A DNA stretch of 24,000 nucleotides from Aerococcus urinaehominis (lineage in GTDB: Bacteria > Bacillota > Bacilli > Lactobacillales > Aerococcaceae). Where the stretch lies: assembly GCF_001543245.1 (NCBI RefSeq), contig NZ_CP014163.1, positions 950,387 to 974,386 on the forward strand, written 5' to 3'. The position numbers and the translations under genes were made by a program. Under the pieces are notes generated by a model. It did no database searches, had not been told where the DNA came from, and saw only the letters and a program-made list of their open reading frames with translations. Shown piece by piece: positions 4,926 to 18,721 of this stretch (its first letter is position 1; each line of letters starts with the position of its first letter).

Positions 4926-6449
4926 CTAAATGTCCTCAGGGTCTTCGCTTAATTTTTCGTTCTCCCTGAAATACAGGCTGGTTAAATTAAGCAGCTGCTC
5001 CTTGAGCGTGTTTGTAATTGCCCGGCTGTCCATCCGCCACATCCAATTAATGCCGATTGTGGACGGCACATTCATCCGTGCCTCATTACCTAAATCTAAT
5101 AAGTCCTGCATAGTATAAATCACAGTATCGCTGACACTGGCGGCAATCCCCCGGTTAAGGGCATGAGAAGCAGGTTCTCCTGGTCGCCGGTTCAAGTAAG
5201 CATCCATCTGGTCACGGATTGCCTGGCTAGCAGTTTCTTCATACCAACCACGGGCTGTTTCATTATCATGGGTGCCCACATAAGCCACACTGTTTACTGG
5301 ATAATGGTGAGGTAGGTCGTCGCTATCAGCCTCACCATCAAAGGCAAATTGTAATATCCTCATGCCCGGATAGCCTGTGGCATCGCGCATATCGATCACT
5401 TCTTGGGTCATATAACCTAAATCTTCAGCAATAATCGCCAAATCACCGCGGGCTGCTTTAAGACTATCAAAAAGCTGGTTACCCGGCCCCTTGGTCCAGT
5501 GACCATAGGCAGCAGTCGGCGCGCCGAAAGGCACCTCCCAGAAGGATTCAAAGCCCCGGAAGTGGTCAATGCGGATAATATCATAAAGATCAAAACTATG
5601 GTCTAAACGCCATAGCCACCAGTCATAGCCCTGGTCAGCCATATAATCCCAATCATAAATCGGGTTGCCCCAATATTGACCATCGGCCGTAAAGGCATCA
5701 GGTGGTACACCAGCAACCATGGTCGGATTCATCTTGACATCAACCTTGAAATATTCGGGCCGTTGCCACATCTCCACACTATCGCGAGCCACATAAATCG
5801 GCATATCGCCGATAATTTGGATATGGTGACTATTAGCATAAGCCTTGAGCTCCTGCCACTGAACCTGGAAGAAGTATTGGCAAACTTCATGAAACTTATA
5901 AGTATCAGGTTGACTAGCGACATAATGAGCCACTGCCTCACTCTGATAGTCCTGGTAGGCTTCATCCCATTCATACCAAGCCTGTAGGCCAAATTTTTCT
6001 TTTACCGTCATGTAACGACAATAGGGATCAAGCCAGTCTTGGCTAGCCGTCACAAATTTTTGATAGGCCGACGACTGGTCCAAGCCTTGATTGACAAAAT
6101 TGGCAACCGCCTGCTCCAGGATAGGCCGTCTAGCCTCAAACACCTTAGCATAATCGATTTTATTAGGGTCACTACCAAAGTCCACATCCCGGTAAGCAGC
6201 AGGATTTAACAAACCTGCCTGACTTAGACGCTCTAAGTCGATAAAATGGGTATTGCCGGCAAAAGCCGAGAAAGATTGGTAGGGTGAATCACCATAACTA
6301 GTTGTTGTCAGTGGCAATATTTGCCAGTAGCTCTGCTTGGTTGCTACTAAAAAATCAACGAAGTCATAGGCTGATTGACCAAAAGAGCCGATACCAAAAT
6401 CATTGGCTAGGGAAGAAATATGTAATAATACACCGCTTGCTCTAGTCAT
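4926..6449 (-). CDS. malQ: 4-alpha-glucanotransferase (amylomaltase, GH77; 507 aa)
   Basis: The N-terminus RASGVLLHISSL...GIGSFG...FVDFL and the motif IIRIDHFRGF are typical of MalQ/GH77. An AAGGAGAG Shine-Dalgarno lies 5 nt before the ATG. Confidence 0.95.
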   Translation of the reverse strand: MTRASGVLLHISSLANDFGIGSFGQSAYDFVDFLVATKQSYWQILPLTTTSYGDSPYQSFSAFAGNTHFIDLERLSQAGLLNPAAYRDVDFGSDPNKIDYAKVFEARRPILEQAVANFVNQGLDQSSAYQKFVTASQDWLDPYCRYMTVKEKFGLQAWYEWDEAYQDYQSEAVAHYVASQPDTYKFHEVCQYFFQVQWQELKAYANSHHIQIIGDMPIYVARDSVEMWQRPEYFKVDVKMNPTMVAGVPPDAFTADGQYWGNPIYDWDYMADQGYDWWLWRLDHSFDLYDIIRIDHFRGFESFWEVPFGAPTAAYGHWTKGPGNQLFDSLKAARGDLAIIAEDLGYMTQEVIDMRDATGYPGMRILQFAFDGEADSDDLPHHYPVNSVAYVGTHDNETARGWYEETASQAIRDQMDAYLNRRPGEPASHALNRGIAASVSDTVIYTMQDLLDLGNEARMNVPSTIGINWMWRMDSRAITNTLKEQLLNLTSLYFRENEKLSEDPEDI

Positions 6450-6470
6450 AAGCGCTCTCCTTACTTTAGT

Positions 6471-6508
6471 TTACAAATTCATTATAAGCGATTTGTAAGA
6501 TTATGCAA
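6471..6508 (-). promoter_or_regulatory. Candidate sigma-A promoter of malQ-glgP with an operator-like inverted repeat
   Basis: Minus strand reads TTGCAT (6508..6503), a 16-nt spacer, then TATAAT (6486..6481). An 8-bp inverted repeat, TTACAAAT (6471-6478) and ATTTGTAA (6491-6498), brackets the -10. Confidence 0.45.
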
Positions 6509-6522
6509 GCACTTTCATAGAT

Positions 6523-7632
6523 TTACATAGCCGTCTTTTGAGCCATATAATTCTCTAGACGCTCAAAATTAGTTTGCAAGAAATCTTCATCAACTTGGTA
6601 AGGCAGCGTGTGGACCTGGCTGCGCCGGTTCATCCGCTGGGCCAAGTCGCGCGCTAAGTCCTGGTCTAGGACAATCCCCATATCAGCCAGAGCGCACGGC
6701 AGGTTAAGCGGCCTAAAGAAGTCCTGTAGGCGGTCAATCTCCGACCACTTTTCTTCAGCTGCTAGCTGAAAGAAGATGCCATAAGCCACAATCTCACCAT
6801 GGTTATACTGGTGGATAGCCGGCAGGGCTGCCGTCAAAGCATCATGGGCCGCATGGGCTAGGGTCACACGAGCATACTTGTTAGCGAAACCGCCTACCAA
6901 GCCAGCCACTGCCATAATCATTTCTGATACCTGTTTAAAGGCCGGGGTAACTTGACCAGCTGCCATATCGGCAATGGCTTGTTGGGCCTGGTCAAACATG
7001 ATATCCCGACACATAATTGTCGTTTGCCGGGCCAAGATAGGAAAGGCTTCTAGTTGGAACTTTTCCTGGGAGAGAATGGCATCAGACTCATACCACTTGG
7101 CCATGGTATCTGCAACACCAGCGATAAAAAGCCGCTGGGGGGCATCAATAATTAAGCGCGGATCGGCTAGCATAAAAACAGCTTGGCGGTCTTCATGTTC
7201 CGAAATTTCTTCAGCGCTACCATCTTCCTTGTACATCACAGAAATCGGCGTCCAAGGGGCGCAGTTAGAGGCCAAGGTTGGCACCACGCCATAAGGGATA
7301 TTACTGATAGCTGCTGCTTGTAGGGTAACATCACAAATCTTGCCGCCACCGACGCCGATGACAAAGTCAATGTGGTGACTTTGGATGATTTGAGCCAGGC
7401 GGTTAGCTTCCACATAGGAACACTCGCCCCGGTGTTTTTCTTCATAAATAGTGAGTTTACTGCGATAAAGTTTAGCTAAATAAGGTTGCGCCTTTTGCCA
7501 GGACACCTGGCCGTGAACCAACAAGATACGCTGGGCACGGTGGGCCTGCAAAATACCAACCATATCGTCAAGGGCACCCTCATGGTATTGGTAGACCTGG
7601 GGACCAACCTTGACCTTTAAATCATTTAACAA
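6523..7632 (-). CDS. Glycerol dehydrogenase-like, iron-containing alcohol dehydrogenase family oxidoreductase (369 aa, TTG start)
   Basis: GldA-family motifs are present: GVGGGKICDVT (NAD-binding loop), ADTMAKWYE, HAAHDALT and HGEIVAYG (metal ligand positions). A GGAG lies 8 nt upstream of the TTG. Confidence 0.75.
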   Translation of the reverse strand: MLNDLKVKVGPQVYQYHEGALDDMVGILQAHRAQRILLVHGQVSWQKAQPYLAKLYRSKLTIYEEKHRGECSYVEANRLAQIIQSHHIDFVIGVGGGKICDVTLQAAAISNIPYGVVPTLASNCAPWTPISVMYKEDGSAEEISEHEDRQAVFMLADPRLIIDAPQRLFIAGVADTMAKWYESDAILSQEKFQLEAFPILARQTTIMCRDIMFDQAQQAIADMAAGQVTPAFKQVSEMIMAVAGLVGGFANKYARVTLAHAAHDALTAALPAIHQYNHGEIVAYGIFFQLAAEEKWSEIDRLQDFFRPLNLPCALADMGIVLDQDLARDLAQRMNRRSQVHTLPYQVDEDFLQTNFERLENYMAQKTAM

Positions 7633-7667
7633 GGTGATAACTCCATTCTCTTTTAAGAATTAGTTAA

Positions 7668-7695
7668 ATATTAGCATATACAAACTGGTTAACAA
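7668..7695 (-). promoter_or_regulatory. Candidate promoter of the dehydrogenase gene (TTGTTA-16-TAATAT)
   Basis: On the minus strand the -35 TTGTTA is at 7695..7690 and the -10 TAATAT at 7673..7668. A 12-bp perfect palindrome, AGCAAATTTGCT (7696-7707), abuts the -35. A cre-like GGTAAACGCTTAAA lies at 7730-7743. Confidence 0.3.
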
Positions 7696-8000
7696 AGCAA
7701 ATTTGCTAGTGTTTGCCCAAGTCGATCACGGTAAACGCTTAAATATAAATCAAAAGAACAAGCTTAGTATTTTAGCAATCTTACAGCCCCCTATATATAT
7801 AAATGATCTGGTTGAGTCACTTTAAAATATGACTATTTCGACTATGATCAAAAAAACACTAATTTTGGTTAAAATTACAGCATCACTTGACTAAAAATCT
7901 TCCTGAAAGACTGCTAATCATTAGGGGATTAATCACCCTTTCCTAATTCGAGATGAAGAACGGCTGATTGAAGAAAGACCGCGCCTTGTTGCTTACAATA

Positions 8001-8029
8001 TTGATAAAATAAATTTGTAATCGATTACT
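8001..8029 (+). promoter_or_regulatory. Putative promoter/operator of bacteriocin module 1; contains the 12-bp perfect palindrome GTAATCGATTAC (8017-8028)
   Basis: TTGATA (8001-8006), a 17-nt spacer, then ATTACT (8024-8029). The 14-nt string TGTAATCGATTACT is identical to 12155-12168, although the flanking spacer sequence differs. Confidence 0.35.
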
Positions 8030-8113
8030 TCAAGTTGAATCACTAATGTTACCATTTATTTTAAGGACTTGTTAGCCTTGCTAGTATGTTATACCTAGAA
8101 AGGAGTGGGTAGT

Positions 8114-8473
8114 GTGCAAGAAGCAGCAAAATATATGCGAATCTATGTATGGATGCGATCATTTATCAACCTAATTGGCATAACGAGCTTTGCTTGGGAC
8201 ATCTTTCTAGTAGCTGCTGTCGATTTATTCACTAACTACGACGATTTCCACCAAAAATTGCACGAAAATAAAAGTTTAATCTACGCCTTTAGCCAATTTA
8301 TCTGGCGTGGCTACGTTTTTTTAACCGGACTAGGCATGTTTACCAAGTTACTAAGAACAGGCCAGTTAATTTGGCAAGCAAGCGATGTCCTGTATGAACT
8401 TGGCTTTGTTGCGGTCCTAAGTTTACCTTTTACTATAATCATCTATATCGCCATTAGAAGGGGAGATATCTAA
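8114..8473 (+). CDS. 119-aa polytopic membrane protein, putative bacteriocin immunity protein (paralog A)
   Basis: Track ORF 8105..8473 trimmed to the GTG at 8114. AGGAG lies 8 nt upstream, and the length then matches the paralog at 12485. It has three to four hydrophobic segments. Its stop overlaps the next start (ATCTAATG). By eye it is roughly 60 percent identical to the 12485 product. Confidence 0.6.
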   Translation: MQEAAKYMRIYVWMRSFINLIGITSFAWDIFLVAAVDLFTNYDDFHQKLHENKSLIYAFSQFIWRGYVFLTGLGMFTKLLRTGQLIWQASDVLYELGFVAVLSLPFTIIIYIAIRRGDI

Positions 8474-8670
8474 TGAAAATCTTACATGAAACATCTATTA
8501 ATGAGGGGTTACTACTGCAAATTAAAGGCGGTGGTAAGCGAACTGATATTGCAGCTGGTATATTACATGGCGCTGCTGCTGGTTTTAAAGTTTGTCCCGC
8601 CGGCTATAAGACTGCTTGTGCTGTAGCTATTGGCGCAGCGGGAGCAGCTTATAGCGCTTGGGGAAATTAG
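8473..8670 (+). CDS. Double-glycine-leader class II bacteriocin precursor, LafX-like Gly/Ala-rich peptide (beta-1; 65 aa)
   Basis: Leader and mature peptide: MKILHETSINEGLLLQIKGG|GKRTDIAAGILHGAAAGFKVCPAGYKTACAVAIGAAGAAYSAWGN. Hydrophobic residues occupy -4, -7 and -12. The mature peptide has 2 Cys and GxxxG/AxxxA motifs. A GGGGAG Shine-Dalgarno lies inside the upstream gene. Confidence 0.85.
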   Translation: MKILHETSINEGLLLQIKGGGKRTDIAAGILHGAAAGFKVCPAGYKTACAVAIGAAGAAYSAWGN

Positions 8671-8758
8671 ATCTTATCATTATATAAAACAACCTTGTAT
8701 AGCCCCATCTTGCATGAACCACCTCCATTAAGTAAACAATAATATAAATAAATACTGA

Positions 8759-8793
8759 GACCGCCTATACTAGTTGTATAGGTGATCTTTTTT
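8759..8793 (+). terminator. Rho-independent terminator of module 1
   Basis: The stem pairs 8764-8770 with 8776-8782, with an imperfect extension. The loop is tagtt, followed by T6 (8788-8793). Confidence 0.55.
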
Positions 8794-8863
8794 ATATCCG
8801 TATCTTTGATTCCATTTTTTAAAGAAATCAGATGAGCTACATCTTCTATACTAAATTAATACA

Positions 8864-8896
8864 TAAAAATCCCCCTAAAGTAGTTTACCTTAGGGG
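8864..8896 (-). terminator. Terminator after the DUF975-like gene (end of the ABC operon)
   Basis: The 7-bp stem CCCCTAA/TTAGGGG pairs 8872-8878 with 8890-8896 around an 11-nt loop. It is followed on the minus strand by a T5 run. Confidence 0.5.
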
Positions 8897-8959
8897 AAGC
8901 ACATTAAATTCTAGATTCTCTCATTATATGAATATTGGCATCACTGTCGAGTTAGTTAA

Positions 8960-9583
8960 CTATGCCTGCACAGCTTGCCTGTAAAGAGCTATCATTTTTT
9001 CCTGATAGCTACGATAACTGGCAACCATTAGCGGGCTGGTTACGACAGTGGCTAGCAGCATAAAACATAGTAAAGGGGTCAGGCTAGCACCTGCTACACC
9101 TGGCTGGCGTAAAGGAGCTAGGAAAATCGGGTAGCCCAATAACAACATAGCTAGTTGCAGACCTGCAATTTTAAAAGAGCAAGTCAAACGGTAGCCACAT
9201 ATTTGCCAACGGTGACCCTTGGCTAGCTGCTGACTCTCTGCCAGTAATTTTCGTGAGCCACTGTCAGACCTATCCATCAACAGGTATGGCGCTAGGCTAT
9301 AATCCAATGACTTGATCACGCCAGGAACCACCAATAGTAATGACCATAAGCCCACTTTCACACAGGTAACTAGTTGTAGAAAGACGAAGCGACTTAGGTA
9401 ACTGGTAGGCTCCTGCCTAGAACCAGCAAACAACCGCCATAAACCAAGCGCCAAGACTAACTGTGCCAAAATATTAGCTAGTAGCCCCCAAAACTCATAG
9501 AAGCTCGTTAAGTAGACATTAGCCATTAAAAGTATTAGTAAATAGATCGCCAATAAACGGTTGGTTGTTAAAGTGAGTTTCAT
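8960..9583 (-). CDS. 207-aa polytopic membrane protein, DUF975-like; candidate immunity or partner protein for the upstream GG peptide
   Basis: Track ORF 8960..9667 trimmed to the ATG at 9583, with AGGAG 8 nt upstream. It has five to six hydrophobic segments. The segment VIKSLDYSLAPYLLMDRSDSGSRKLLAESQQLAKGHRWQ resembles the DUF975 core as I remember it, which has not been verified. Confidence 0.55.
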   Translation of the reverse strand: MKLTLTTNRLLAIYLLILLMANVYLTSFYEFWGLLANILAQLVLALGLWRLFAGSRQEPTSYLSRFVFLQLVTCVKVGLWSLLLVVPGVIKSLDYSLAPYLLMDRSDSGSRKLLAESQQLAKGHRWQICGYRLTCSFKIAGLQLAMLLLGYPIFLAPLRQPGVAGASLTPLLCFMLLATVVTSPLMVASYRSYQEKMIALYRQAVQA

Positions 9584-9611
9584 TTTCAAAGCTCCTATTT
9601 CTCTTAAATTT

Positions 9612-9788
9612 TTATTGGTAAACCTGAGCTGGACAATAAACGGCTGGGAATTTAATGCTTTGGGCAATTTCGGGCCTCATCTTACCGCTAGCAACTAAGT
9701 CAGCTATCCGAGCTTGCTGAGCCCTAATATTGGCACATAGATTGCCACCACGAACTAGTCCTAGCTGACGATTATCGAGCTTATTCAT
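9612..9788 (-). CDS. Double-glycine-leader peptide precursor (58 aa) with a hydrophilic, two-cysteine 43-aa mature part
   Basis: Track ORF 9612..9878 trimmed to the ATG at 9788, preceded by AGGAGGTGAT. The start overlaps the ABC stop by 8 nt (ATGAATAA). Sequence: MNKLDNRQLGLVRGG|NLCANIRAQQARIADLVASGKMRPEIAQSIKFPAVYCPAQVYQ. The leader has L-12, L-7 and V-4. Confidence 0.75.
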   Translation of the reverse strand: MNKLDNRQLGLVRGGNLCANIRAQQARIADLVASGKMRPEIAQSIKFPAVYCPAQVYQ

Positions 9789-11949
9789 CTGAATCACCTC
9801 CTGTCTGGTCTTGGCCATACATGGCCTGATAAAGTTCAGACTGCTGTAATAGAGTTTGCTGGTCACCGTCACCAACAATCCGTCCCTGGTCTAATAAAAT
9901 CACCCGGTCAAATTGGGCAACCAAGGGTAGATGATGGGCAATAAAAATAATGGTCTTGTCTAAAGAAAGTAAGTAACTAACCACCTGCTTTTCTAGGATG
10001 GGATCCATGGCACTAGTCGCCTCATCTAAGATATAAATATCTGCATCCCGTAACAAGGCACGAGCTAGGACAATCCTTTGTTTTTGCCCACCTGATAAGT
10101 TTTGACCCCCTTCTTCGAGCGGTTGGTCTAGCCCCAGCGAATGACTCAGGGCAAAATCTCTTAAGTCCAACTGATTCATGACATATTCAATGCGGCCGAA
10201 GCTAATCTGGTCCTCTTGGTCCAAGACCAAGTTATTATACAAACTCCCCTTTATAATAAAATTATCCTGGGGCAGGTAATAAATTCGCTCGCGAAGCGAT
10301 TGAATTTTCAAATCATTAATAGCAAGGTCCTCAAAACAGATTTGACCAGTTTGGGGACGATGGAGGGCAACTAGGAGTTTGGCCAGGCTAGACTTACCAG
10401 ACCCGCTAGGCCCTACCAAGGCTACTTTTTGCCCATAAGGGATGGTTAAATTAATATCTTCTAAGGTAATTTGATTAATATTATAGGCGAAGGACAGTTG
10501 GCAGATACTGATCTCCTTCTTCAAGTTATTCGTATAAATCCCATACTGGTTGCTTGCATACTCACTGTCAATTTCCAGGACCTCATTTAAACGCTGGTTG
10601 GCAACACCAGCTTCCTGGAGACTAGCTTGAAGCTTGAAAATATTTTGCAAGGGACCAGTAAAATAAACAACTAGGGCATTGTAAGTGATTAATTGCCCCA
10701 AAGTCAGCTGGCCTTGCATCACCAGATAAGCGCCATACCACAAGGTCAGGCTAGTTGTTAACAAACCAACCAATTCTTTGATACTTTCTTGCTTAATCTC
10801 TAAAACAGCTGTAATGAGCGCATCCCGCATGGTAACTAAAAACTGAAATCTTACTGCCTGCTTAGCAGCAGTCGTATAGTTATTGGTTTTTAGGCTCTCG
10901 ATTCCTTGTAAGTATTCAATAATCTTAGCGTTCAATTGACTTTGACTGGACATTTCTTCTCTGTTGGCCTGATCGAGTGGCTTAACAAATCGGTAGATGG
11001 CCAAGAAATAAAAAGGCAAAGAGAGTAAAGTTAATAAAAATAAAAAGCCATTTTGCCAGGCTAGTGTTAACCCAACAATAACCGCCATCCCAACATCTAA
11101 AACCAGGGTGATAGATGCTGAGCCTAGAGCATTGACAATTTTATTGGCATCTAAGAAGCGAGAGATAATGTCACCGGCCTGGCGGTTAGTAAAAAAATCT
11201 AAGGGTAGGTCTAAAACATGGTTAAAATAATCTAACATAATTGTTTGGCTCATCTCTTGACCCAAAATTACCAATAATTTGCTCCGAATGTATTTAAAAA
11301 TGACCATGGCCAAGTAGGCAGCTAATAAACCTAGAGAAAAAACATTTAGCCAGTGATAGTTGTTCCGAGGAATTAATTGGTCAATCAGTACTTGAAAATA
11401 AAAAGAAGACCCAATGCTAATAGCGATGACCACTATTGAAGCCAAAATAATTTTAGCCAGCAGGATTTTATTATCCATAATCAGTGAGAAAAACTGTGAT
11501 AGCCCTTTACTTTTATGAACTTGGATTTGATAATTTTCTCCTGGCGTCGGAATCAAGAGGACACCCGTCCAAATACTTGCAAAGTCAGCCAAGCTCATCT
11601 GTATTTTAGCTTCAGCCGGATCAGCAATTAACAGTTGGTCACCCTCTAGACCATAGACAACTAGGTAATGGAGTTGGTCACCTTCTTTAATGACATGGGC
11701 GATGGCCGGGAAGGACATGTCCGGATCTTGCCAAACAGTATTATCAGCCTCAACTGCCAAACAATCAAAGCCATAGCCCTCTAAGGCTATTTTCAGACCA
11801 TAGGCAGAAGTCCCCTGCTTATCTGTACCTGATTCTCGTCTTAACCGGTGTAAGGGCACCTGGCTGCCGTAATGGGCTAGGACCATGGCCAAACAGGCAA
11901 CACCACAATCACTCTGGTCCTGTTGGGCAATAAATTTAAATTTAGCCAT
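9781..11949 (-). CDS. Bacteriocin-processing ABC transporter with N-terminal C39 peptidase domain (722 aa; ComA/LagD/BlpA type)
   Basis: C39 catalytic Cys context QDQSDCGVACLAMVLAHYG and His context HYLVVYG. It has a six-TM ABC domain, Walker A GPSGSGKSS, signature LSGGQKQR and Walker B IYILDEATSAMD. GGGGGAG lies 6 nt before the ATG. Confidence 0.95.
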   Translation of the reverse strand: MAKFKFIAQQDQSDCGVACLAMVLAHYGSQVPLHRLRRESGTDKQGTSAYGLKIALEGYGFDCLAVEADNTVWQDPDMSFPAIAHVIKEGDQLHYLVVYGLEGDQLLIADPAEAKIQMSLADFASIWTGVLLIPTPGENYQIQVHKSKGLSQFFSLIMDNKILLAKIILASIVVIAISIGSSFYFQVLIDQLIPRNNYHWLNVFSLGLLAAYLAMVIFKYIRSKLLVILGQEMSQTIMLDYFNHVLDLPLDFFTNRQAGDIISRFLDANKIVNALGSASITLVLDVGMAVIVGLTLAWQNGFLFLLTLLSLPFYFLAIYRFVKPLDQANREEMSSQSQLNAKIIEYLQGIESLKTNNYTTAAKQAVRFQFLVTMRDALITAVLEIKQESIKELVGLLTTSLTLWYGAYLVMQGQLTLGQLITYNALVVYFTGPLQNIFKLQASLQEAGVANQRLNEVLEIDSEYASNQYGIYTNNLKKEISICQLSFAYNINQITLEDINLTIPYGQKVALVGPSGSGKSSLAKLLVALHRPQTGQICFEDLAINDLKIQSLRERIYYLPQDNFIIKGSLYNNLVLDQEDQISFGRIEYVMNQLDLRDFALSHSLGLDQPLEEGGQNLSGGQKQRIVLARALLRDADIYILDEATSAMDPILEKQVVSYLLSLDKTIIFIAHHLPLVAQFDRVILLDQGRIVGDGDQQTLLQQSELYQAMYGQDQTGGDSDE

Positions 11950-11985
11950 CTATAGCTCCCCCAAATTTTAAATCAGTTTTAGCTT

Positions 11986-12050
11986 ATTCTATCTATTTAA
12001 AAACAAAACTGTGATAATCCTTCCTAAACTGCTATTAATTTTTCATGAAT
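11986..12050 (-). promoter_or_regulatory. Candidate regulated promoter of the ABC operon with paired direct repeats
   Basis: Minus strand reads ATTCATGA (12050..12043), 13 nt, GTTTAGGA (12029..12022), 30 nt, then TAGAAT (11991..11986). The repeat starts are 21 bp apart, the same layout as at 16827-16890. Confidence 0.4.
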
Positions 12051-12139
12051 CGAACAGCATAGTATATTTAACTAACTTATTCACAGTTTAAGAAGAAAAA
12101 AAGTAATTTAATGAAGGTTTTTTCTAAGAACTTAAAATC

Positions 12140-12168
12140 TTGTTATACTAAAGATGTAATCGATTACT
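12140..12168 (+). promoter_or_regulatory. Putative promoter/operator of bacteriocin module 3; contains the palindrome GTAATCGATTAC (12156-12167)
   Basis: TTGTTA (12140-12145), a 17-nt spacer, then ATTACT (12163-12168). The geometry and palindrome match 8001-8029. Confidence 0.35.
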
Positions 12169-12235
12169 AAACGAACCTTGGCAACCAATGGAAGTTTTGT
12201 TAGTTAGCTAAGCCTAGTGAAAGGAGGTCGTCATA

Positions 12236-12454
12236 ATGAATTTTACAAAATTAGAAGATCAATCACTAAAATCAATTCGAGCCGGCCATAATAAGTGGCA
12301 GCAATTAGGAGAGGTGACTAAAGGAATGGTTGAGGTTGGTGCTGGTGGTGCAGCTTTAGGTAGTGTAGTCTGTGGACCTGGTTGTGCCGTTCTAGGTGGT
12401 TTAGCAGGTGTCGCTGTAGGTGGCGCCACAGGTGCCTTAGATGCCCAAAATTAA
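12236..12454 (+). CDS. AG-leader class IIb-type bacteriocin precursor, LafA/GatA-like (alpha; 72 aa)
   Basis: Sequence: MNFTKLEDQSLKSIRAG|HNKWQQLGEVTKGMVEVGAGGAALGSVVCGPGCAVLGGLAGVAVGGATGALDAQN. The leader has L-12, L-7 and I-4. The mature N-terminus xNxWQ and the VCGPGCAV motif recall lactacin F LafA (RNNWQTN...ICGPACAV) as I remember it. AAGGAGG lies 8 nt upstream. Confidence 0.85.
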   Translation: MNFTKLEDQSLKSIRAGHNKWQQLGEVTKGMVEVGAGGAALGSVVCGPGCAVLGGLAGVAVGGATGALDAQN

Positions 12455-12484
12455 AAAATTAAATTTTAAAAGGAGGTTGGCCCT

Positions 12485-12844
12485 ATGACAAAAGCAGCAA
12501 AATATATGCGTATCTATGTCTGGATTAGATTGTTGATCAACCTGCTAGGCATAACGAGCTTTGCTTGGGATATCCTTCTAGTAGCTGCTGTCCACTTATT
12601 TACCAGCTACAAAGATTTCCACAAAATTTTTCAAGCAAACAAAAACATGACCTATTTCTTCAGCCAAGCAATCTGGCGTGGCTATGTTGATTTAACTGGA
12701 GTAGCTATGCTTATCAGATTATTACAATCAGGTCAACTGTCCTGGCAAGCCAGTGATATTATTTATAACTTTGGTGGTATTATTTTGTTAAGTTTAATTT
12801 GTACTGGAATTACTTATATAGCTGTTAGAAGGGGAGATATCTAA
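12485..12844 (+). CDS. 119-aa polytopic membrane protein, putative immunity protein (paralog B)
   Basis: AGGAGG lies 8 nt upstream. It is a paralog of 8114..8473, sharing AAKYMRIYVW, ITSFAWDI, LVAAV, IWRGYV, SWQASD and RRGDI. Its stop overlaps the next ATG (TAATG). Confidence 0.65.
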   Translation: MTKAAKYMRIYVWIRLLINLLGITSFAWDILLVAAVHLFTSYKDFHKIFQANKNMTYFFSQAIWRGYVDLTGVAMLIRLLQSGQLSWQASDIIYNFGGIILLSLICTGITYIAVRRGDI

Positions 12845-13038
12845 TGAAAATTTTACATGAAAAAACTATTAAAGCAGAAAGACTACTAAAAATAAAAGGC
12901 GGTGGTAAGCGCACTGATGTGGCATCTAATATGCTGTCGTGGGCTGCAGCTGGCTACCGCATTTGTCCCGCCTATAAACCGGTCTGTGCCGTAGTTGGAG
13001 GAGCAGCCGGTGCAGCTTATGGCGCCTGGGGTAATTAA
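12844..13038 (+). CDS. Double-glycine-leader bacteriocin precursor (beta-2; 64 aa), paralog of 8473..8670
   Basis: Sequence: MKILHEKTIKAERLLKIKGG|GKRTDVASNMLSWAAAGYRICPAYKPVCAVVGGAAGAAYGAWGN. By eye it is roughly 70 percent identical to beta-1. Confidence 0.85.
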   Translation: MKILHEKTIKAERLLKIKGGGKRTDVASNMLSWAAAGYRICPAYKPVCAVVGGAAGAAYGAWGN

Positions 13039-13054
13039 TAATAAGTAAACAACA

Positions 13055-13094
13055 TAAAAAAACTTCGCTGAGCAACTCGCTAGCGAAGTTTTTT
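13055..13094. terminator. Bidirectional terminator between the convergent beta-2 and response regulator genes
   Basis: The stem CTTCGCT/AGCGAAG pairs 13063-13069 with 13082-13088. It is flanked by an A-run (13055-13062) and a T-run (13089-13094). Confidence 0.65.
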
Positions 13095-13848
13095 ATGTCT
13101 TATGTTTAGCTAATACAAATTTTTCTAACGCCACTTTCTTGCTGGCTGAGAAGGGTAATTGGTCACCATTATCAAGCGTGAGCAATCGCTTGTCACCATC
13201 AACCAAACGAATTTTATCGGGATTGATTAGGGTGCTACGACTAATACCAAATAAGTCTTGGGGATATTCCCTTTGGTAGGCTTTAATTTTGCCATAGAAC
13301 TGATAATGCCCGGTCTCTGTCACCAGTTCCAAACGGTGGGGCAGCGATGAGATCTGGATATAAATCACCTCATCAATTAAAAATCGATAGACTTTGTTGC
13401 CTATTTTAAAAGAAATCATAGGATCCTCTTGATTTGAAACGCTATTTTCTTGGTCCGTGATCAAATTTAAACACTGGAAAATTTCTTGACGCATCACCTC
13501 TTTATCACCCTTTTCAACTAGGGCAAAGGGTTCTACCTTGCGCTTCAAGACCATAGGAGCATATTTAGTATGGCTGGTAATAAAAATAATTTTACCAAAG
13601 GGATCTATCTGGCGAATCGCTGTTGCTAAATCAATGCCATTGGTGTCAAGGTTGCCTAATTCAATATCTAGAAAATAAACACCCAGTCTCACTTGATCTG
13701 CCTGAATCTGATTAAATAAGTCAGCTGGATCTGGACTGAAGCCCCCCATTTTATAAGCATGGTTATGAAAAAGGACATAATCTTTAATGATATCAGTAAT
13801 ATCTAGTAGCTGGATAGAATTATCGTCACAAATATAGATTGAGTGCAT
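13093..13848 (-). CDS. LytTR-family response regulator (251 aa; AgrA/ComE/PlnC type)
   Basis: The receiver domain has the phospho-acceptor context VYFLDIEL. The C-terminal LytTR domain reads ISFKIGNKVYRFLIDEVIYIQ...FGISRSTLINPDKI. TAGGAGG lies 5 nt upstream. Confidence 0.9.
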   Translation of the reverse strand: MHSIYICDDNSIQLLDITDIIKDYVLFHNHAYKMGGFSPDPADLFNQIQADQVRLGVYFLDIELGNLDTNGIDLATAIRQIDPFGKIIFITSHTKYAPMVLKRKVEPFALVEKGDKEVMRQEIFQCLNLITDQENSVSNQEDPMISFKIGNKVYRFLIDEVIYIQISSLPHRLELVTETGHYQFYGKIKAYQREYPQDLFGISRSTLINPDKIRLVDGDKRLLTLDNGDQLPFSASKKVALEKFVLAKHKT

Positions 13849-15112
13849 AAAAACCTCCTAAGGGGCTGTGATAATCAATTGAACAGAAAAAGTGTTAGCT
13901 TGATTTTCAAGATGTATAAAAAGATTAGGATATTTCTTGGCGATACGCCGCAAATTAGACAAACCCAAACCCGTATGATTGGCTTTACTAGAAAAGCCCT
14001 TAATTTGAATTTTTTCTAAATCAATCGCTTGATTTAAAGAGTTTTCAATATAAATTTCAATTTGATTGCCTTCTAAATAAAACAAGATATTGATTTGACG
14101 AGCCTGGTTCTGATCAGCTACCGCCTCAAGCGCATTGTCTAATAAAATTCCTAGAATACGAATCAGGTCATAGTCAGCAAGATAAAAATCCTGTATATTA
14201 TGCGGACATTCAAAATAAACCAAGACTCCCTTGTCTGCAATCAAATAGAATTTTTCTAGTAGCAGGGCTTTTACATAAGGATTTTTTACCTTAGTAAGAT
14301 CTAAAATTTTATCATTTTTGATATCTAACTCTCTTTTTGAGTAGCTATCCAAGCCTGCTACAAATTCTAATAAATCATCTATACGATTATCATTCAAAAG
14401 AGATTTAACAGTAGTCAATAGATTCTTATAATCATGCCTAAAGGCCCTTATTTTATCTTGGCTTGCTTCTAGTTGGTCTACATATTTAGCCATATTATCT
14501 AGTCGAGCCTCCATTAACTTATGCTCGTATTCTCTCCTGTTATTTTGCAAGATAACAAATACAAACACTGCCACAACTATAATCTGCAAAACAAAAAAAT
14601 AGAAAGACTCCTGTACCCGATTTTGAGAACCTGCACTCGTAGGAAGTATAATATTATTGTAGAACCCAAGTATGTTCAGCAAAGCGAATATACTATAATT
14701 AACCAGAGGAAGTAGCGGATTTTTAAAATATGGCGAATTGATGTATCGCTTTGTCACAACTAAAGTCAAAATACACACTAGCAAACTAGGGATTAATCGC
14801 TTCAAGTAGTCAAAAAATATTATTTGCGAAACATCCTCTATTGCTTGACTCATCAAATAATTTCCTGCCACATAATCAAAGCATTCCAAAATAAATTGTG
14901 GCATTAGTGTAGCAAAAATGATCTGTGATGACTCCCTTTTTTTGAATTATATAAAAAGAAAAGGAATATGGCATAGAGAATATCGATTAAATTTACGGTA
15001 TTAAAAGGCAATAAATTGAGTAGTGAATTAAGAAAAATAAAAGGATATATGCTTACTAGGCCAATTCCAATTTTTCTTAATTTAAAATCATCTAACAGGT
15101 AAGCTGTTCCCA

Positions 15113-15120
15113 AACATCTA
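15113..15120. repeat. Target-site duplication, left copy (AACATCTA; possibly 9 bp with the A at 15112)
   Basis: Identical to 16446-16453 and immediately flanks the IS inverted repeats. Confidence 0.8.
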
Positions 15121-16445
15121 GATTAAGTCCATATAATTGTGTAAAAAGAAAAACCATAATAATCTTTTTTGGTTACAATGTAATTGGCTAAAACACATTG
15201 AAAGGAAGATTATTATGGCTCAACTAAATATTACCCTAAACTTAGAAGAAATTACAGAGGCAGTTCTAAACAGTGATATGGATCAGATGATGAAGTCCCT
15301 AACTGTAACCATCTTTAATGCCTATATGCAAGCAGAGCGTGAGGAATTTATTAATGCTAAGCGCTATGAGCGCACAGATGACCGGAAAGATTATCGTAAT
15401 GGCTCCTATAAAAGAAACTTTAAAACAAAGGTAGGGACTGTTGAACTGGATGTCCCTCGGACACGATCAGGAGAATTTGATACCAAGCTATTCGATAAAT
15501 ATCAACGTATGGACAAGGCCTTTGTGGCTGTTTTAACCGAAATGTATATTAATGGGGTCTCAACACGCCGTATTAAGAAGGTTGTTGAAACACTCTGTGG
15601 CGAAGGTGTTTCTAAATCATTTGTCTCTTCAGTAAATAAAAACTTGGACCCTGCTGTTTTCGAATTTAAAGGGCGTTCCCTAACACATACGAATTTTCGA
15701 TATGTTTATGTCGATGCCATGTATATTAAAGTTCGCGAAAACCATCGTTCTGTCTCTAAAGGTGTTTATATTGCTCAGGGTATTAACGATGATAATCGTC
15801 GCGAAATTATCGGCTTTATGATTGCTGATAATGAATCAGAAGAAAACTGGAAGAACTTCTTCCTTGATTTAAAGGCCAGAGGCCTAACTAAACCAACATT
15901 AATTATATCTGACGCCCACAAGGGACTAAAATCAGCGATTAGTAATCAATTTTTAGGCACTACCTGGCAACGGTGTACGGTTCATTTTCTACGTAATATT
16001 TTAGCTCATTTTCCAAAAAAGGATTGCAGTCATGAGAGAAGTCTTCTAAAGAGAATATTTAATGCTGATAGTCAACAAAGAGCGCGAGAGTTAAAATTTG
16101 AATTTGTAGAATACGTTAGTGGCAATGAGAAATATGACAAAGCTGTTAATACGCTAGAGGAAGGCTTCGAAGATGCTATCCCATACTTATTAGAACCCAC
16201 ACCTTATCGCGTTTCACTGAAAACAACTAACAGTCTAGAAAGGCTAAATCGAGAAATTAGAAGAAGAGAGAAAGTTGTCGGCCTCTTTCCTAATATAGAG
16301 GCTGCGGAGCGACTTATAGGAAGTGTATTGCTTGATTTGCATGAATATTGGGAGACATGTCCTCATAAATTCTTTAATAACATAGTCTAAATATTTATAC
16401 CCACCAATTACATTCTATAATTTACACAAGATTGTGGACTTGACA
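15121..16445 (+). mobile_element. IS256-family insertion sequence (about 1.3 kb)
   Basis: Imperfect terminal inverted repeats: left gattAAGTCCAtataaTTGTGTAAA (15121-15145), against the right-end reverse complement tgtcAAGTCCAcaatcTTGTGTAAA (16445-16421). It has a single transposase ORF and a perfect 8-9 bp direct repeat of the target. Confidence 0.85.
15215..16390 (+). CDS. IS256-family (mutator-type) DDE transposase (391 aa)
   Basis: Track ORF 15137..16390 trimmed to the ATG at 15215 (GAAAGGAAG upstream). MAQLNITLNLEE...YERTDDRKDYRNGSYKRNFKTKVGTVELDVPRTRSGEF...VYVDAMYIKVRE...ISDAHKGL...WQRCTVHFLRN is a typical IS256-family sequence. Confidence 0.9.
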   Translation: MAQLNITLNLEEITEAVLNSDMDQMMKSLTVTIFNAYMQAEREEFINAKRYERTDDRKDYRNGSYKRNFKTKVGTVELDVPRTRSGEFDTKLFDKYQRMDKAFVAVLTEMYINGVSTRRIKKVVETLCGEGVSKSFVSSVNKNLDPAVFEFKGRSLTHTNFRYVYVDAMYIKVRENHRSVSKGVYIAQGINDDNRREIIGFMIADNESEENWKNFFLDLKARGLTKPTLIISDAHKGLKSAISNQFLGTTWQRCTVHFLRNILAHFPKKDCSHERSLLKRIFNADSQQRARELKFEFVEYVSGNEKYDKAVNTLEEGFEDAIPYLLEPTPYRVSLKTTNSLERLNREIRRREKVVGLFPNIEAAERLIGSVLLDLHEYWETCPHKFFNNIV

Positions 16446-16453
16446 AACATCTA
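16446..16453. repeat. Target-site duplication, right copy (AACATCTA)
   Basis: Identical to 15113-15120. Confidence 0.8.
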
Positions 16454-16511
16454 AAAGCAAAAACGGCTACTATTCTTAATAAAAAGGCCCAAAGTGTCAT
16501 ATCTATACTAC

Positions 16512-16640
16512 TTATTTGATACGGCATTGTCTTAATAGATTAAAAATCAGCGCACAATTTTTTTCTTTAGAATTAGCCTGGTTATAGTTGAAAACGCCAC
16601 CTTTAATTAATTTAAGTTGATTAATTGCTATTTTTTTCAA
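16512..16640 (-). CDS. Putative inducer-peptide (pheromone) precursor with double-glycine leader (42 aa, TTG start)
   Basis: Not in the ORF track. AAGGAG (16654..16649) lies 8 nt before the TTG at 16640. Sequence: MKKIAINQLKLIKGG|VFNYNQANSKEKNCALIFNLLRQCRIK. The 3' end overlaps the kinase start (16527) by 16 nt, which is the classic IP-HK-RR gene order. Confidence 0.7.
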   Translation of the reverse strand: MKKIAINQLKLIKGGVFNYNQANSKEKNCALIFNLLRQCRIK

Positions 16641-16813
16641 AATAAACACTCCTTTAATATTTAAAATTCTGCACTAAAAATTCATTTCAATGGCACGATA
16701 GTATATAATACTCACTTCTTACTAGATATATATTAATTGTCAAAAAAATATTTAGCTACTCAATCATCTTATCAGTAAATGAGTACTACTTTATAGCCCC
16801 CCCCTCACAAACC

Positions 16814-16890
16814 ATTCAAGAGATAAATTCAAGAACTAAATACTTGCATTCAGGAAACATTCTCCCTTCTCTCAATATAGTTGTTATAAT
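16814..16890 (+). promoter_or_regulatory. Candidate LytTR-regulated promoter: three ATTCA(A/G)GA direct repeats plus an extended -10
   Basis: ATTCAAGA occurs at 16814-16821 and 16827-16834, and ATTCAGGA at 16848-16855. The last two starts are 21 bp apart. TGTTATAAT lies at 16882-16890, 37 nt after the last repeat start. No good -35 is present. Confidence 0.5.
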
Positions 16891-16933
16891 AATGTTGTAA
16901 GCAGTTACAAAGTTTTTTGAAAGGAGCTTTCCG

Positions 16934-17106
16934 ATGCAAAATGATAAGTCATTACCTGATGAGTGGTTAAAAAAGTCCGTGGTGGTTCCAATGATTACAT
17001 CTGGACCCAAATAGGTCGGCATGCTGGTAATTTTATGAATTGTATGGACAAGCCTGTTAGCACCGACCCCTTCGTTTCTGCCGGTTACTGTATTGGTCCA
17101 AAATGA
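16934..17106 (+). pseudogene. Frameshifted double-glycine-leader bacteriocin precursor
   Basis: Not in the track. GAAAGGAG lies 7 nt before the ATG at 16934. As written, the frame stops after 26 codons. Adding one A to the A6 run (16969-16974) gives MQNDKSLPDEWLKKVRGG|SNDYIWTQIGRHAGNFMNCMDKPVSTDPFVSAGYCIGPK, with L-12, L-7 and V-4, ending at 17106. Confidence 0.6.
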
Positions 17107-17130
17107 GTGATTTAAACTAGGAGGATTATC

Positions 17131-17289
17131 ATGAAAAAATATCATACCTTGAAAAAATCAGAATTGATGCAAATCAAAGCTGGAGGTGCTGCTTTGAATA
17201 TTATCTCAACCATTGGTAGTTTTCTTATAGCTGACGCTTGGAGACATAGCGATCAAATTAGGGAGGGCTACCAACAAACGCGCCACTAG
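17131..17289 (+). CDS. GG/AG-leader bacteriocin-like peptide precursor (52 aa)
   Basis: Not in the track. AGGAGG lies 6 nt before the ATG. Sequence: MKKYHTLKKSELMQIKAG(G)|AALNIISTIGSFLIADAWRHSDQIREGYQQTRH. The LxxSELxxIxAG leader fits the consensus if cleavage follows AG. Confidence 0.75.
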   Translation: MKKYHTLKKSELMQIKAGGAALNIISTIGSFLIADAWRHSDQIREGYQQTRH

Positions 17290-17315
17290 TAACATATAAA
17301 TGAAGGATGATTACT

Positions 17316-17528
17316 ATGAAAAAGGGATTAATTGAGGATTTAAAAGTGATTATAGCAACCTTCATCTTTGGTCTAGCCTGGCTGCTAATCACTAGCTACA
17401 TATCAGGAAGTCAACCTCTGCTAGTAGCTGAAGATTATAAATTTCTCTTTACCTATACCTTTATTGTATCGGTCGTGTTCATAGGCAGCCGTCTAATTAA
17501 AGGTCAAAAAACTAATAAAAGTAATTAA
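17316..17528 (+). CDS. Small two-TM membrane protein (70 aa), putative immunity protein of the 16934/17131 peptide pair
   Basis: Track ORF 17307..17528 trimmed to the ATG at 17316, with AAGGA 8 nt upstream. It has two hydrophobic helices and a basic C-terminus. It is the last gene before the terminator. Confidence 0.55.
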   Translation: MKKGLIEDLKVIIATFIFGLAWLLITSYISGSQPLLVAEDYKFLFTYTFIVSVVFIGSRLIKGQKTNKSN

Positions 17529-17532
17529 TTAA

Positions 17533-17560
17533 AGTAGCCCGCAACCGGGCTACTTTTATA
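17533..17560 (+). terminator. Rho-independent terminator
   Basis: The 9-bp stem AGTAGCCCG/CGGGCTACT pairs 17533-17541 with 17546-17554. The loop is caac, followed by TTTTATATTTT. Confidence 0.7.
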
Positions 17561-17598
17561 TTTTCAGCGCAAGATCTGCTAAATTAGTCCCCAATCTA

Positions 17599-17715
17599 TC
17601 AGGCACAAATTTTACCATAACAGGCCCGCAACCAATCCCAGGCTTTCTTTAGGTCCTGAACGCCTCCAAAGCCCGCTTTAACTTGTCTGAGCTCTTGATT
17701 AGATAAAGTTTTCAT
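17599..17715 (-). CDS. Orphan AG-leader peptide precursor (38 aa)
   Basis: Not in the track. AAAGGAGGGGG lies upstream of the ATG at 17715. Sequence: MKTLSNQELRQVKAG|FGGVQDLKKAWDWLRACYGKICA. The leader matches the LSxxELxxVxxG consensus exactly apart from Ala at -2. The mature 23-mer ends in C-x5-C-A. Confidence 0.65.
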   Translation of the reverse strand: MKTLSNQELRQVKAGFGGVQDLKKAWDWLRACYGKICA

Positions 17716-17841
17716 CAACTTCCCCCTCCTTTAATTGTATATACAATTCCATAATAAACCAAGTCTGTTTTAACTCTGATTAGTCTTCTTAAATCTGCTT
17801 TTTTTATTCCTGAACGAAAACTGTTGGTATCATTAGCTAAC

Positions 17842-17885
17842 AAAATAGCACCCTAGCGAAACTATCCTGCTAAGGTGCTATTTTT
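17842..17885 (-). terminator. Terminator after the distal metQ-like gene
   Basis: The 8-bp stem ATAGCACC/GGTGCTAT pairs 17845-17852 with 17874-17881, with further inner pairing. It is flanked by A and T runs and lies 12 nt after the stop at 17897. Confidence 0.55.
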
Positions 17886-17896
17886 ACCTACTGATA

Positions 17897-18721
17897 TTAG
17901 GGTTGCGGTGCACCCTCCCAAACTGGGATAGATGAACCATTGGACATTTCATCGATGATCTTAGCGACTTGGTCGGTTTGATAGTACTTAATAATCGTTT
18001 GGAAAATTTCCTCGTCCTGGCGGTCACCCCGAGCTGCAATAACATTGTAATAAGGTTTAGAGCTCTCAGCCACTGGCTCCAAGTAAATTGAATCTTGGGT
18101 TGGGATAAAGCCAGCATCAGTAGCCATATCATTGTTAACCAGGGCGATGTCGACATCATTTAATGAGCGCGCCGTTTGGTTGGCAGCCATAGAGGTAAAC
18201 TGAAGGTTTTTAGGATTTTCAGTAATATCATTGATAGTTGGTAAGAGACCCTTGGCTGGATCCAGCTTGATTAGGCCAGCCGTTTGTAAGAGTAAGAGGG
18301 CCCGGCTCTCGTTAGACACATCATCAGGAACCGCTACCTTGGCGTTATCAGCTAATTGGTCTAGACTAGTAATTTTTTCAGAGAAGACCCCCATAGGATT
18401 AAGGGTGGTATAGGCAATGGTCGTATTGGTATAACCCGATTCCTTGTTAACCTCTTCCATGAAAATTTCAGTCAAGGCTGAATGAAGGTCAATTGAACCA
18501 TCTTCAAGGGCCACAATTGGCGCCCGGTAGTCAGTAAACTTAACGAGCTCCAAATTGATATTTTCCTTGTCGGCTAATTCTTTTTGGATGTATTCCCACT
18601 GGTCATTCTTTTCCCCAACTACCCCTAAGCGGACAGTAGTTGCCTCACTGGAACCGGAAGAACCACAGGCAGCTAGGACAAAGGTGACAGCTAAAAATAG
18701 GGCAAGTAGTTTCTTTTTCAT
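17897..18721 (-). CDS. metQ: MetQ/NlpA-family substrate-binding lipoprotein (274 aa)
   Basis: Track ORF 17897..18802 trimmed to the ATG at 18721 (AAAGGAAAT upstream). The signal peptide and lipobox read MKKKLLALFLAVTFVLAAC. By eye it is roughly 45 percent identical to 19969..20802. Confidence 0.85.
   Translation of the reverse strand: MKKKLLALFLAVTFVLAACGSSGSSEATTVRLGVVGEKNDQWEYIQKELADKENINLELVKFTDYRAPIVALEDGSIDLHSALTEIFMEEVNKESGYTNTTIAYTTLNPMGVFSEKITSLDQLADNAKVAVPDDVSNESRALLLLQTAGLIKLDPAKGLLPTINDITENPKNLQFTSMAANQTARSLNDVDIALVNNDMATDAGFIPTQDSIYLEPVAESSKPYYNVIAARGDRQDEEIFQTIIKYYQTDQVAKIIDEMSNGSSIPVWEGAPQP

Follow-up and report, generated by a model that had tools for sequence, protein, structure and literature searches.

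Class IId bacteriocins with one long-range disulfide, e.g. enterocin B and carnobacteriocin A, and the three-component bacteriocin regulons of the streptococcal blpABC and lactobacillar pln/spp type are the described systems closest to the locus analysed here. Class II immunity genes adjoin the bacteriocin gene and are co-transcribed with it, and they often encode unrelated multi-transmembrane (TM) proteins, e.g. the Abi/CAAX-type PlnI and PlnP. The bacteriocin islands of lactic acid bacteria often encode orphan double-glycine (GG) peptides, each with a membrane partner peculiar to it. The locus is a three-gene operon in a 24,000-nucleotide (nt) stretch of Aerococcus urinaehominis DNA (termed the window). 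It consists of a gene for a peptide exporter of the ATP-binding cassette (ABC) type, a gene for a 58 amino acid (aa) GG peptide, and a gene for a 207-aa membrane protein related to the DUF975 family.

The operon may encode a sequence-novel bacteriocin of class IId type, probably with a Cys3–Cys37 disulfide, together with a dedicated immunity protein derived from DUF975, and it may be a member of the regulon of the surrounding island. The chance that this reading is correct is put at about even. It is favored by the anatomy of the operon: a regulated promoter and a terminator enclose an exporter gene, a GG-peptide gene and, at the place usual for an immunity gene, a membrane-protein gene. Every feature is on the minus strand, in the order exporter, GG peptide, 207-aa membrane protein and terminator:

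12021..12049, minus strand: LytTR-type direct-repeat box, TTCATGAA-N13-TTTAGGAA, 5′ of the exporter operon (pattern scan)
9781..11949, minus strand: peptide cleavage/export ABC transporter (PCAT), 722 aa, with C39 peptidase, ABC membrane domain and ATPase
9793..9802, minus strand: Shine-Dalgarno (SD) sequence AGGAGGTGAT of the peptide gene, within the 3′ end of the exporter gene (sequence reading)
9744..9788, minus strand: double-glycine leader MNKLDNRQLGLVRGG, 15 aa (sequence reading and regular-expression test)
9612..9743, minus strand: predicted mature 43-mer NLCANIRAQQARIADLVASGKMRPEIAQSIKFPAVYCPAQVYQ and stop codon (sequence reading)
8960..9583, minus strand: 207-aa membrane protein, a divergent, N-terminally short DUF975 relative and candidate immunity protein
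8870..8898, minus strand: intrinsic-terminator-like hairpin and T-run, which closes the operon

The exporter open reading frame (ORF) has the C-terminus GGDSDE-TAA, with its stop codon at positions 9783–9781. The ATG of the peptide gene is at 9788–9786, and 8 nt (ATGAATAA) are common to the two ORFs. The distance from GGAGG to this ATG is 8 nt. The 58-codon peptide ORF is at positions 9612–9788 and has its stop codon at 9614–9612. It is separated by 28 nt from the ATG of the 207-aa gene (position 9583), which has its own SD sequence, AGGAG at 9596–9592 with an 8-nt spacer, and which ends with a stop codon at 8960. There is no terminator in the 28-nt gap between these two same-strand genes. The terminator hairpin is directly 3′ of the 207-aa gene and displays a 13-pair stem with 5 GC pairs and the tail TTTTTATGTA. 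The GC content of the peptide/membrane-protein pair (~0.43) is similar to that of flanking core genes. A promoter scan gave ATCACA/TAGAAT at 12015–11986, in which the −10-like TAGAAT is at 11991–11986. The repeat box is ~30 nt 5′ of this hexamer and 72 nt 5′ of the exporter ATG.

The coordinates and sequence statements of the initial annotation (the 8-nt overlap, AGGAGG, the 28-nt gap, AGGAG and the 207-aa length) were all correct. Its view that the peptide is made stoichiometrically with the exporter was too strong: the 8-nt overlap permits coupling, but the peptide gene has a strong SD sequence of its own, and independent or excess translation is possible. The 207-aa gene is adjacent to the peptide gene, on the same strand and in an arrangement for co-transcription, which is the position of an immunity gene. 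The earlier suggestion of an immunity function was thus a reasonable one from gene position.

GG leaders were taken to be N-terminal segments of ~15–30 aa that end in GG (or GA/GS) and have hydrophobic residues at positions −4, −7, −12 and −15. The leader of the 58-aa peptide shows G−1, G−2, V−4, L−7, L−12 and M−15, i.e. all positions of the double-glycine consensus are kept. Of the 437 start-to-stop candidates in the window, 4 distinct ORFs fit a strict regular expression for the leader. All 4 are GG peptides of the island, and the 58-aa peptide is one of them. In 444 kb of unrelated DNA the same expression was matched by 15 of 4424 candidates (~0.3%), none of which has a ribosome-binding site or peptide-like features. 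That the leader pattern, with an ideal SD sequence, falls on the single ORF adjoining a C39 exporter is not due to chance. Both the leader pattern and the linkage to the C39 exporter through the 8-nt overlap place the gene in the GG-leader class.

The exporter displays Pfam matches to Peptidase_C39 (3.1e-41), ABC_membrane (1.1e-46) and ABC_tran (5.9e-32). It scores 700 bits against NCBIfam TIGR01193, where the cut-off is 524, and is a full-length PCAT. The C39 domain of this exporter, encoded upstream, would recognize the 58-aa precursor by its double-glycine leader. Once cut behind Gly15, the precursor would leave the cell as a cationic peptide of 43 residues, in which Cys3 and Cys37 probably form a disulfide after export. 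This bond would hold the Pro-rich C-terminal tail against the beginning of a helix-turn-helix hairpin. The exported peptide would act as an unmodified, non-pediocin (class IId-type) bacteriocin, and the 207-aa DUF975-like protein, co-transcribed from the downstream gene, would protect the producer.

The mature 43-mer has 5 K/R and 2 D/E residues, a net charge of +3, a grand average of hydropathy (GRAVY) of 0.0, cysteines at positions 3 and 37, and no GxxxG motif. This composition count confirms the charge of about +3, the cysteine positions and the absence of GxxxG given in the initial annotation. The amphipathic helix that was also predicted there is overstated: the Eisenberg moment is ≤0.42 over 11 residues and ≤0.30 over 18, and the peptide is weakly amphipathic. 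The description as an atypical two-cysteine peptide is likewise overstated. Two cysteines are also present in 5/6 of the other GG peptides of the island, and it is the 33-residue spacing that is unusual, as the others have short loops. The other island GG peptides match PF10439 (Bacteriocin_IIc) weakly, unlike the 43-mer. The YGNGV box of class IIa is absent from the peptide.

A single-sequence AlphaFold2 (AF2) model of the precursor has a predicted local distance difference test (pLDDT) score of 71.8. In this model a long helix extends from the leader as far as mature residue 19; SGKM forms a turn, after which come a short helix and a tail rich in Pro. A Foldseek search of the PDB with this model gave no meaningful match.

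A word-indexed search of 5.8 billion protein clusters for relatives of the peptide yielded only the peptide itself. An exhaustive phmmer search of 1.84 billion representatives of ~15 billion proteins yielded the peptide and one 939-aa protein, and nothing else. No match beyond the peptide itself was found in Joint Genome Institute (JGI) metagenomes (back-translated scan), and none was found in plasmids (tblastn) or in PDB sequences. The one non-self match (P0125; 38.9 bits summed, E 6e-5) is to a TrbI-family protein (conjugation/type IV secretion) with seven tandem SHOCT-like repeats (PF22746; consensus DYAARLxQLVKEGKLTPEQAKKLL). Each repeat aligns weakly with mature residues ~4–30 of the peptide, at ~20 bits over 20–30 residues.

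The repeats of P0125 raise the question of a protein-binding role. The peptide would then be an exported hairpin and not a bacteriocin, with a core, ARIADLVASGKMRPEIAQSI, that forms a SHOCT-like helix-turn-helix, and it would bind the DUF975-like protein or another surface partner, e.g. as a chaperone, an anchor or a contact-dependent factor. The seven weak alignments are consistent with this, as is the AF2 model, which has a helix-turn-helix over the same stretch. However, no SHOCT or helix-turn-helix model matches the peptide even at E ≤ 10, single repeat alignments of this strength and length are typical of convergent helical-hairpin composition, and the Foldseek search of the PDB was empty. 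This reading, an exported hairpin with a binding function in place of a bacteriocin, is considered very improbable. A SHOCT or helix-turn-helix origin of the peptide was rejected as unsupported, since no such model was matched. The resemblance comes from one repeat protein only. From the alignments, the resemblance is probably a convergence of helical hairpins and not homology.

The 207-aa protein was compared with the DUF975 family. It scores 31.6 bits (E 1.9e-7) against Pfam DUF975 (PF06161), where the gathering cut-off is 34.8, and the match is limited to profile positions 111–205 of 243. PF06161.17 is listed for this protein in the precomputed database annotation despite the sub-threshold score. 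The other Pfam matches, UPF0259 and DUF7027, are sub-threshold as well, and NCBIfam gives a weak YciC match only. Thus the resemblance to DUF975 noted in the initial annotation stands for the core of the protein but does not reach the family threshold or extend over the whole profile. No match to known immunity families (Abi/CAAX PF02517, EntA_Immun and others) was found in Pfam or NCBIfam.

The nearest proteins are two 190-aa DUF975 proteins, with 47–52% identity over a quarter of the length. The block LWSLLLVVPGVIKxLxYSLAPY and the GH(K/R)xQ motif are common to these two and the 207-aa protein, without variation in these alignment columns. Against a custom profile of 79 genomic relatives the 207-aa protein scores 84 bits, at profile positions 68–201 of 236; the profile is biased, as its members were retrieved by the same shared motif. 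The N-terminal ~67 profile positions of the family are absent from the protein, and there is an insertion of ~35 residues after GHRWQ (residue ~127). The full-length DUF975 architecture (~240 aa including the N-terminal segment) is not present. Hydropathy indicates ~5 membrane helices, the lower end of the five to six TM segments proposed earlier. An AF2 model made with a 3-sequence alignment has a pLDDT of 59, a confidence too low for the model to be of use. As judged by these motifs and profile matches, the 207-aa protein is a genuine relative of DUF975, though truncated and divergent. Close relatives were not found in JGI metagenomes, and blastn of the 951-bp pair region against plasmids gave no match.

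For all three gene products of the operon, a 100% match that bears the name Aerococcus urinaehominis was found. The peptide is present on three other contigs, one each from a second assembly, an SRA assembly and a metagenome, and all three are 100% identical to the window in DNA sequence.

A scan of a genome collection for DUF975 relatives returned 260, of which the best 80 loci, each with flanks of up to 10 kb, were used for the comparison. A C39 domain was found in 0/80 of these best loci; the ABC matches there are generic exporters that align from residue ~200 on. A credible GG peptide within 3 kb was likewise found in 0/80. The contigs of the two nearest DUF975 proteins and a L. plantarum plasmid locus show no bacteriocin genes. 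Neither a C39 exporter nor a credible GG peptide was found near relatives of the membrane protein in 3 metagenomic contigs and one plasmid locus.

The pairing therefore does not recur in these collections, and a new recurrent peptide/partner system is unsupported. The initial annotation had proposed that the pair is a previously undescribed system of this kind. With an absolute orphan as the peptide and the empty result from the best 80 of the 260 DUF975 loci, this proposal was not upheld. The proposal had itself been tied to genomic co-occurrence beyond this strain; none was found, the other copies of the pair being identical DNA. The pair appears to be a singleton, novel in sequence and known from a single clone, and a single-clone pair without comparative support is not a new type of system. 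A search of the literature on A. urinaehominis bacteriocins found nothing.

The nearest relatives of the exporter are only ~49% identical to it. The last ~10 residues of the exporter are outside of the region aligned with these relatives, and the SD sequence and ATG of the peptide gene are inside this non-conserved tail. This suggests a rearranged junction at 9781–9815. In the nearest exporter loci (~49% identity), either an LcnD-type accessory gene is ~20 nt 3′ of the PCAT gene, as in L004 and L006, or the PCAT gene is followed by nothing. None of the nearest exporters examined is followed by a peptide/DUF975 pair. The peptide/DUF975 stretch was considered as a possible remnant of an LcnD-type accessory gene. 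This was rejected, since tblastn with two LcnD proteins gave no match in the window.

One locus (L008, ENA ERZ28571322 scaffold_36, positions 5354–18087), from a relative with a GluRS of 62% identity, also has a bacteriocin island beside gltX. In the L008 island the PCAT gene is preceded by an Rce1/CAAX-type gene, and a pair of LytTR regulators and numerous small ORFs are encoded as well. In this group, islands of this kind may insert repeatedly near gltX.

The island in the window (~7900–17900) encodes at least five further GG peptides, several of which adjoin small membrane proteins. A structural gene with an immunity gene is the local rule in this island. The island also encodes a LytTR response regulator (13093–13848) and a GHKL, HPK10-type kinase, which is the one kinase in the window. 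A GG peptide gene of the inducer type (16512–16640, mature length 27 aa) is directly 5′ of the kinase and regulator genes; thus the canonical inducer-peptide gene is elsewhere than in the exporter operon, as the initial annotation had it.

The pattern TTNANGAA-N13-TTNANGAA (direct repeats spaced by 21 bp) has 4 exact matches in the window, where 0.35 are expected by chance. These and one imperfect match are:

12021–12049, minus strand: exact repeat box, 5′ of the exporter operon
12087–12115, plus strand: exact repeat box, 5′ of the divergent 12236 operon
16828–16856, plus strand: exact repeat box, in the GG-peptide cluster at the far end of the island
17786–17814, minus strand: exact repeat box, directly 5′ of the GG-peptide gene 17599–17718
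7947–7975, plus strand: repeat box with 2 mismatches, 5′ of the 8105 operon

The boxes at 16828–16856 and 17786–17814 were not used in deriving the pattern. The exporter operon thus has its box in common with three or four other promoters of GG-peptide genes. Bacteriocin promoters under LytTR control, those of the pln, spp and blp regulons, have the same 21-bp spacing. The boxes are probably the binding site of the LytTR regulator at 13093–13848. From the shared box and the 21-bp spacing it can be inferred that the quorum-sensing regulon of the island includes the exporter-peptide-DUF975 operon.

A box of this regulon on the operon would also permit autoinduction, if the 43-mer were itself a secreted signal like blpC behind exporter genes. 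It would then be sensed by the island kinase, or by the DUF975-like protein as a receptor or modulator. The site 3′ of the exporter gene resembles the blpA-blpB-blpC order, and the peptide is hydrophilic and cationic, without the Gly/Ala-rich membrane-inserting segments of the other island peptides. However, the place of the inducer is already taken by the gene at 16512–16640 with its 27-aa mature product, the window has a single kinase, and DUF975 has no signaling domain. Pheromones of this type are usually 17–27 residues long, as against 43 here. The inducer peptides are recognized by a gene directly 5′ of the kinase/regulator genes and a mature length of ~17–27 aa, and the 43-mer has neither. 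A role as a signal is thus thought improbable.

The kinase region (13858–16500) is interrupted. An IS256-family insertion sequence (IS) element with a transposase ORF at 15137–16390 and inverted repeats at 15125–15145 and 16421–16441 splits the kinase gene. It is flanked by a 10-bp direct duplication, CAAACATCTA, at 15111–15120 and 16444–16453. A second frame break is found near 14904–14930, beside an A7 run. From these lesions the quorum-sensing kinase looks like a pseudogene.

An island with a kinase in this state may be degenerating, and the peptide and membrane-protein genes may be silent or decaying cargo, i.e. recently arisen or fast-drifting ORFs with no current role. Besides the IS256-family insertion with its target duplication and the further frame break, this would account for an accessory protein gene that is not found in the window, a peptide that is an orphan among ~15 billion proteins, a membrane protein without the first ~67 profile positions of its family, and an exporter whose last 10 residues are non-conserved, as from a recent rearrangement at the junction. 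Other features speak against decay, however. Neither ORF is disrupted, both begin with ATG at a near-ideal distance from the SD sequence, and a terminator is present. Every consensus position of the leader is kept, and the exporter is full length with all its domains. The GC content is host-like and the promoter box is present. Silent cargo is judged to be an unlikely explanation.

Several results weigh against the class IId-type reading. The peptide has no match to bacteriocin families at E ≤ 1 in Pfam or NCBIfam, and the mature peptide has none at E ≤ 10; together with the PDB and protein-cluster searches this is in line with the initial annotation, for which a match to a described bacteriocin family would have counted against the proposal. 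A hydrophilic (GRAVY 0.0), weakly amphipathic peptide is unlike most pore-forming class II peptides. The relatives of the 207-aa protein are stand-alone genes, away from exporters and GG peptides, and no DUF975 protein is known to have been linked to immunity; in the literature the mentions of DUF975 that were checked are gene-table entries. An LcnD/ComB-type accessory gene, or a remnant of one, was not found within the window when two LcnD proteins of the closest exporter loci served as tblastn queries. As the kinase is split by the IS256-family element and has a frame break, induction has probably been lost in this strain. Finally, with no homologue and no polymorphism, conservation or purifying selection cannot be judged.

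The class IId-type reading is nevertheless the one favored by the operon as a whole. What sets the operon apart is mild: the hydrophilic peptide, the overlap of its gene with the exporter gene where relatives carry an accessory gene, and the DUF975-type partner. A more far-reaching proposal is that the hydrophilic, disulfide-closed 43-mer is the first member of a new class II bacteriocin family for which no LcnD-type accessory protein is required, with the truncated DUF975-like protein as its immunity factor. This is offered tentatively and is doubtful at present. If true, it would give the first experimentally approachable function for the widespread DUF975 family, namely the binding or neutralizing of an exported peptide at the membrane. 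Should the 43-mer prove active, the class II bacteriocins would gain a hydrophilic scaffold unique in sequence, and from a commensal genus of the urinary tract that has been little explored for antimicrobials. If the partner protects the producer, this would open a first way into the function of DUF975, a membrane-protein family that is common in the Bacillota and has no assigned role.

Other features of the island were observed. Two paralogous modules (8105–8670 and 12485–13038) each encode a membrane protein (122 and 119 aa) followed, with an ATGA overlap, by a Gly/Ala-rich GG peptide (65 and 64 aa) with two close cysteines. In these modules the immunity-like gene precedes the peptide gene, an order opposite to that of the exporter-linked pair. 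A perfect 12-bp palindrome, GTAATCGATTAC, is present at 8017–8028 and 12156–12167 (2 matches, 0.07 expected). It is just 3′ of a −10-like hexamer in the two paralogous bacteriocin operons and could be an operator or a 5′-leader hairpin. At the far end of the island, ~275 nt separate the repeat box at 16828–16856 from the GG peptide gene at 17131. In this stretch (16900–17130 on the plus strand) there is a short plus-strand ORF behind GAAAGGAG, and also a 109-aa minus-strand ORF (16816–17145) that has no Pfam match.

In comparison with the streptococcal blpABC and lactobacillar pln/spp regulons, the island is alike in having an HPK10-type kinase, a LytTR regulator and a GG inducer gene, and in having 21-bp-spaced repeats in several promoters, with the exporter operon under the same box. 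It differs in that the 43-aa peptide is the one behind the exporter and not the kinase-adjacent one, in that a BlpB/PlnH-type accessory gene was not found in the window, and in that the kinase is IS-interrupted.

The 207-aa protein shares with the DUF975 (PF06161) proteins of the Bacillota the core and GH(K/R)xQ motifs, a multi-helix membrane topology and the 84-bit profile match. It differs from them in its sub-threshold Pfam score, its short N-terminus and its ~35-residue insertion, and in its setting, since typical members are stand-alone genes.

The class IId bacteriocins enterocin B and carnobacteriocin A show no sequence similarity to the 43-mer, which is hydrophilic and without Gly/Ala-rich or strongly hydrophobic segments. 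The arrangement also differs: here the peptide gene is inside the exporter operon and overlaps the exporter stop codon, there is no LcnD-type gene in the window, and the immunity candidate is of the DUF975 type. In other respects the systems are alike. They have in common a consensus GG leader and a dedicated C39 ABC exporter (TIGR01193-type PCAT), a cationic, unmodified peptide of 40–55 residues with two cysteines far apart, a membrane-protein gene directly 3′ of the peptide gene, and LytTR-type promoter repeats.

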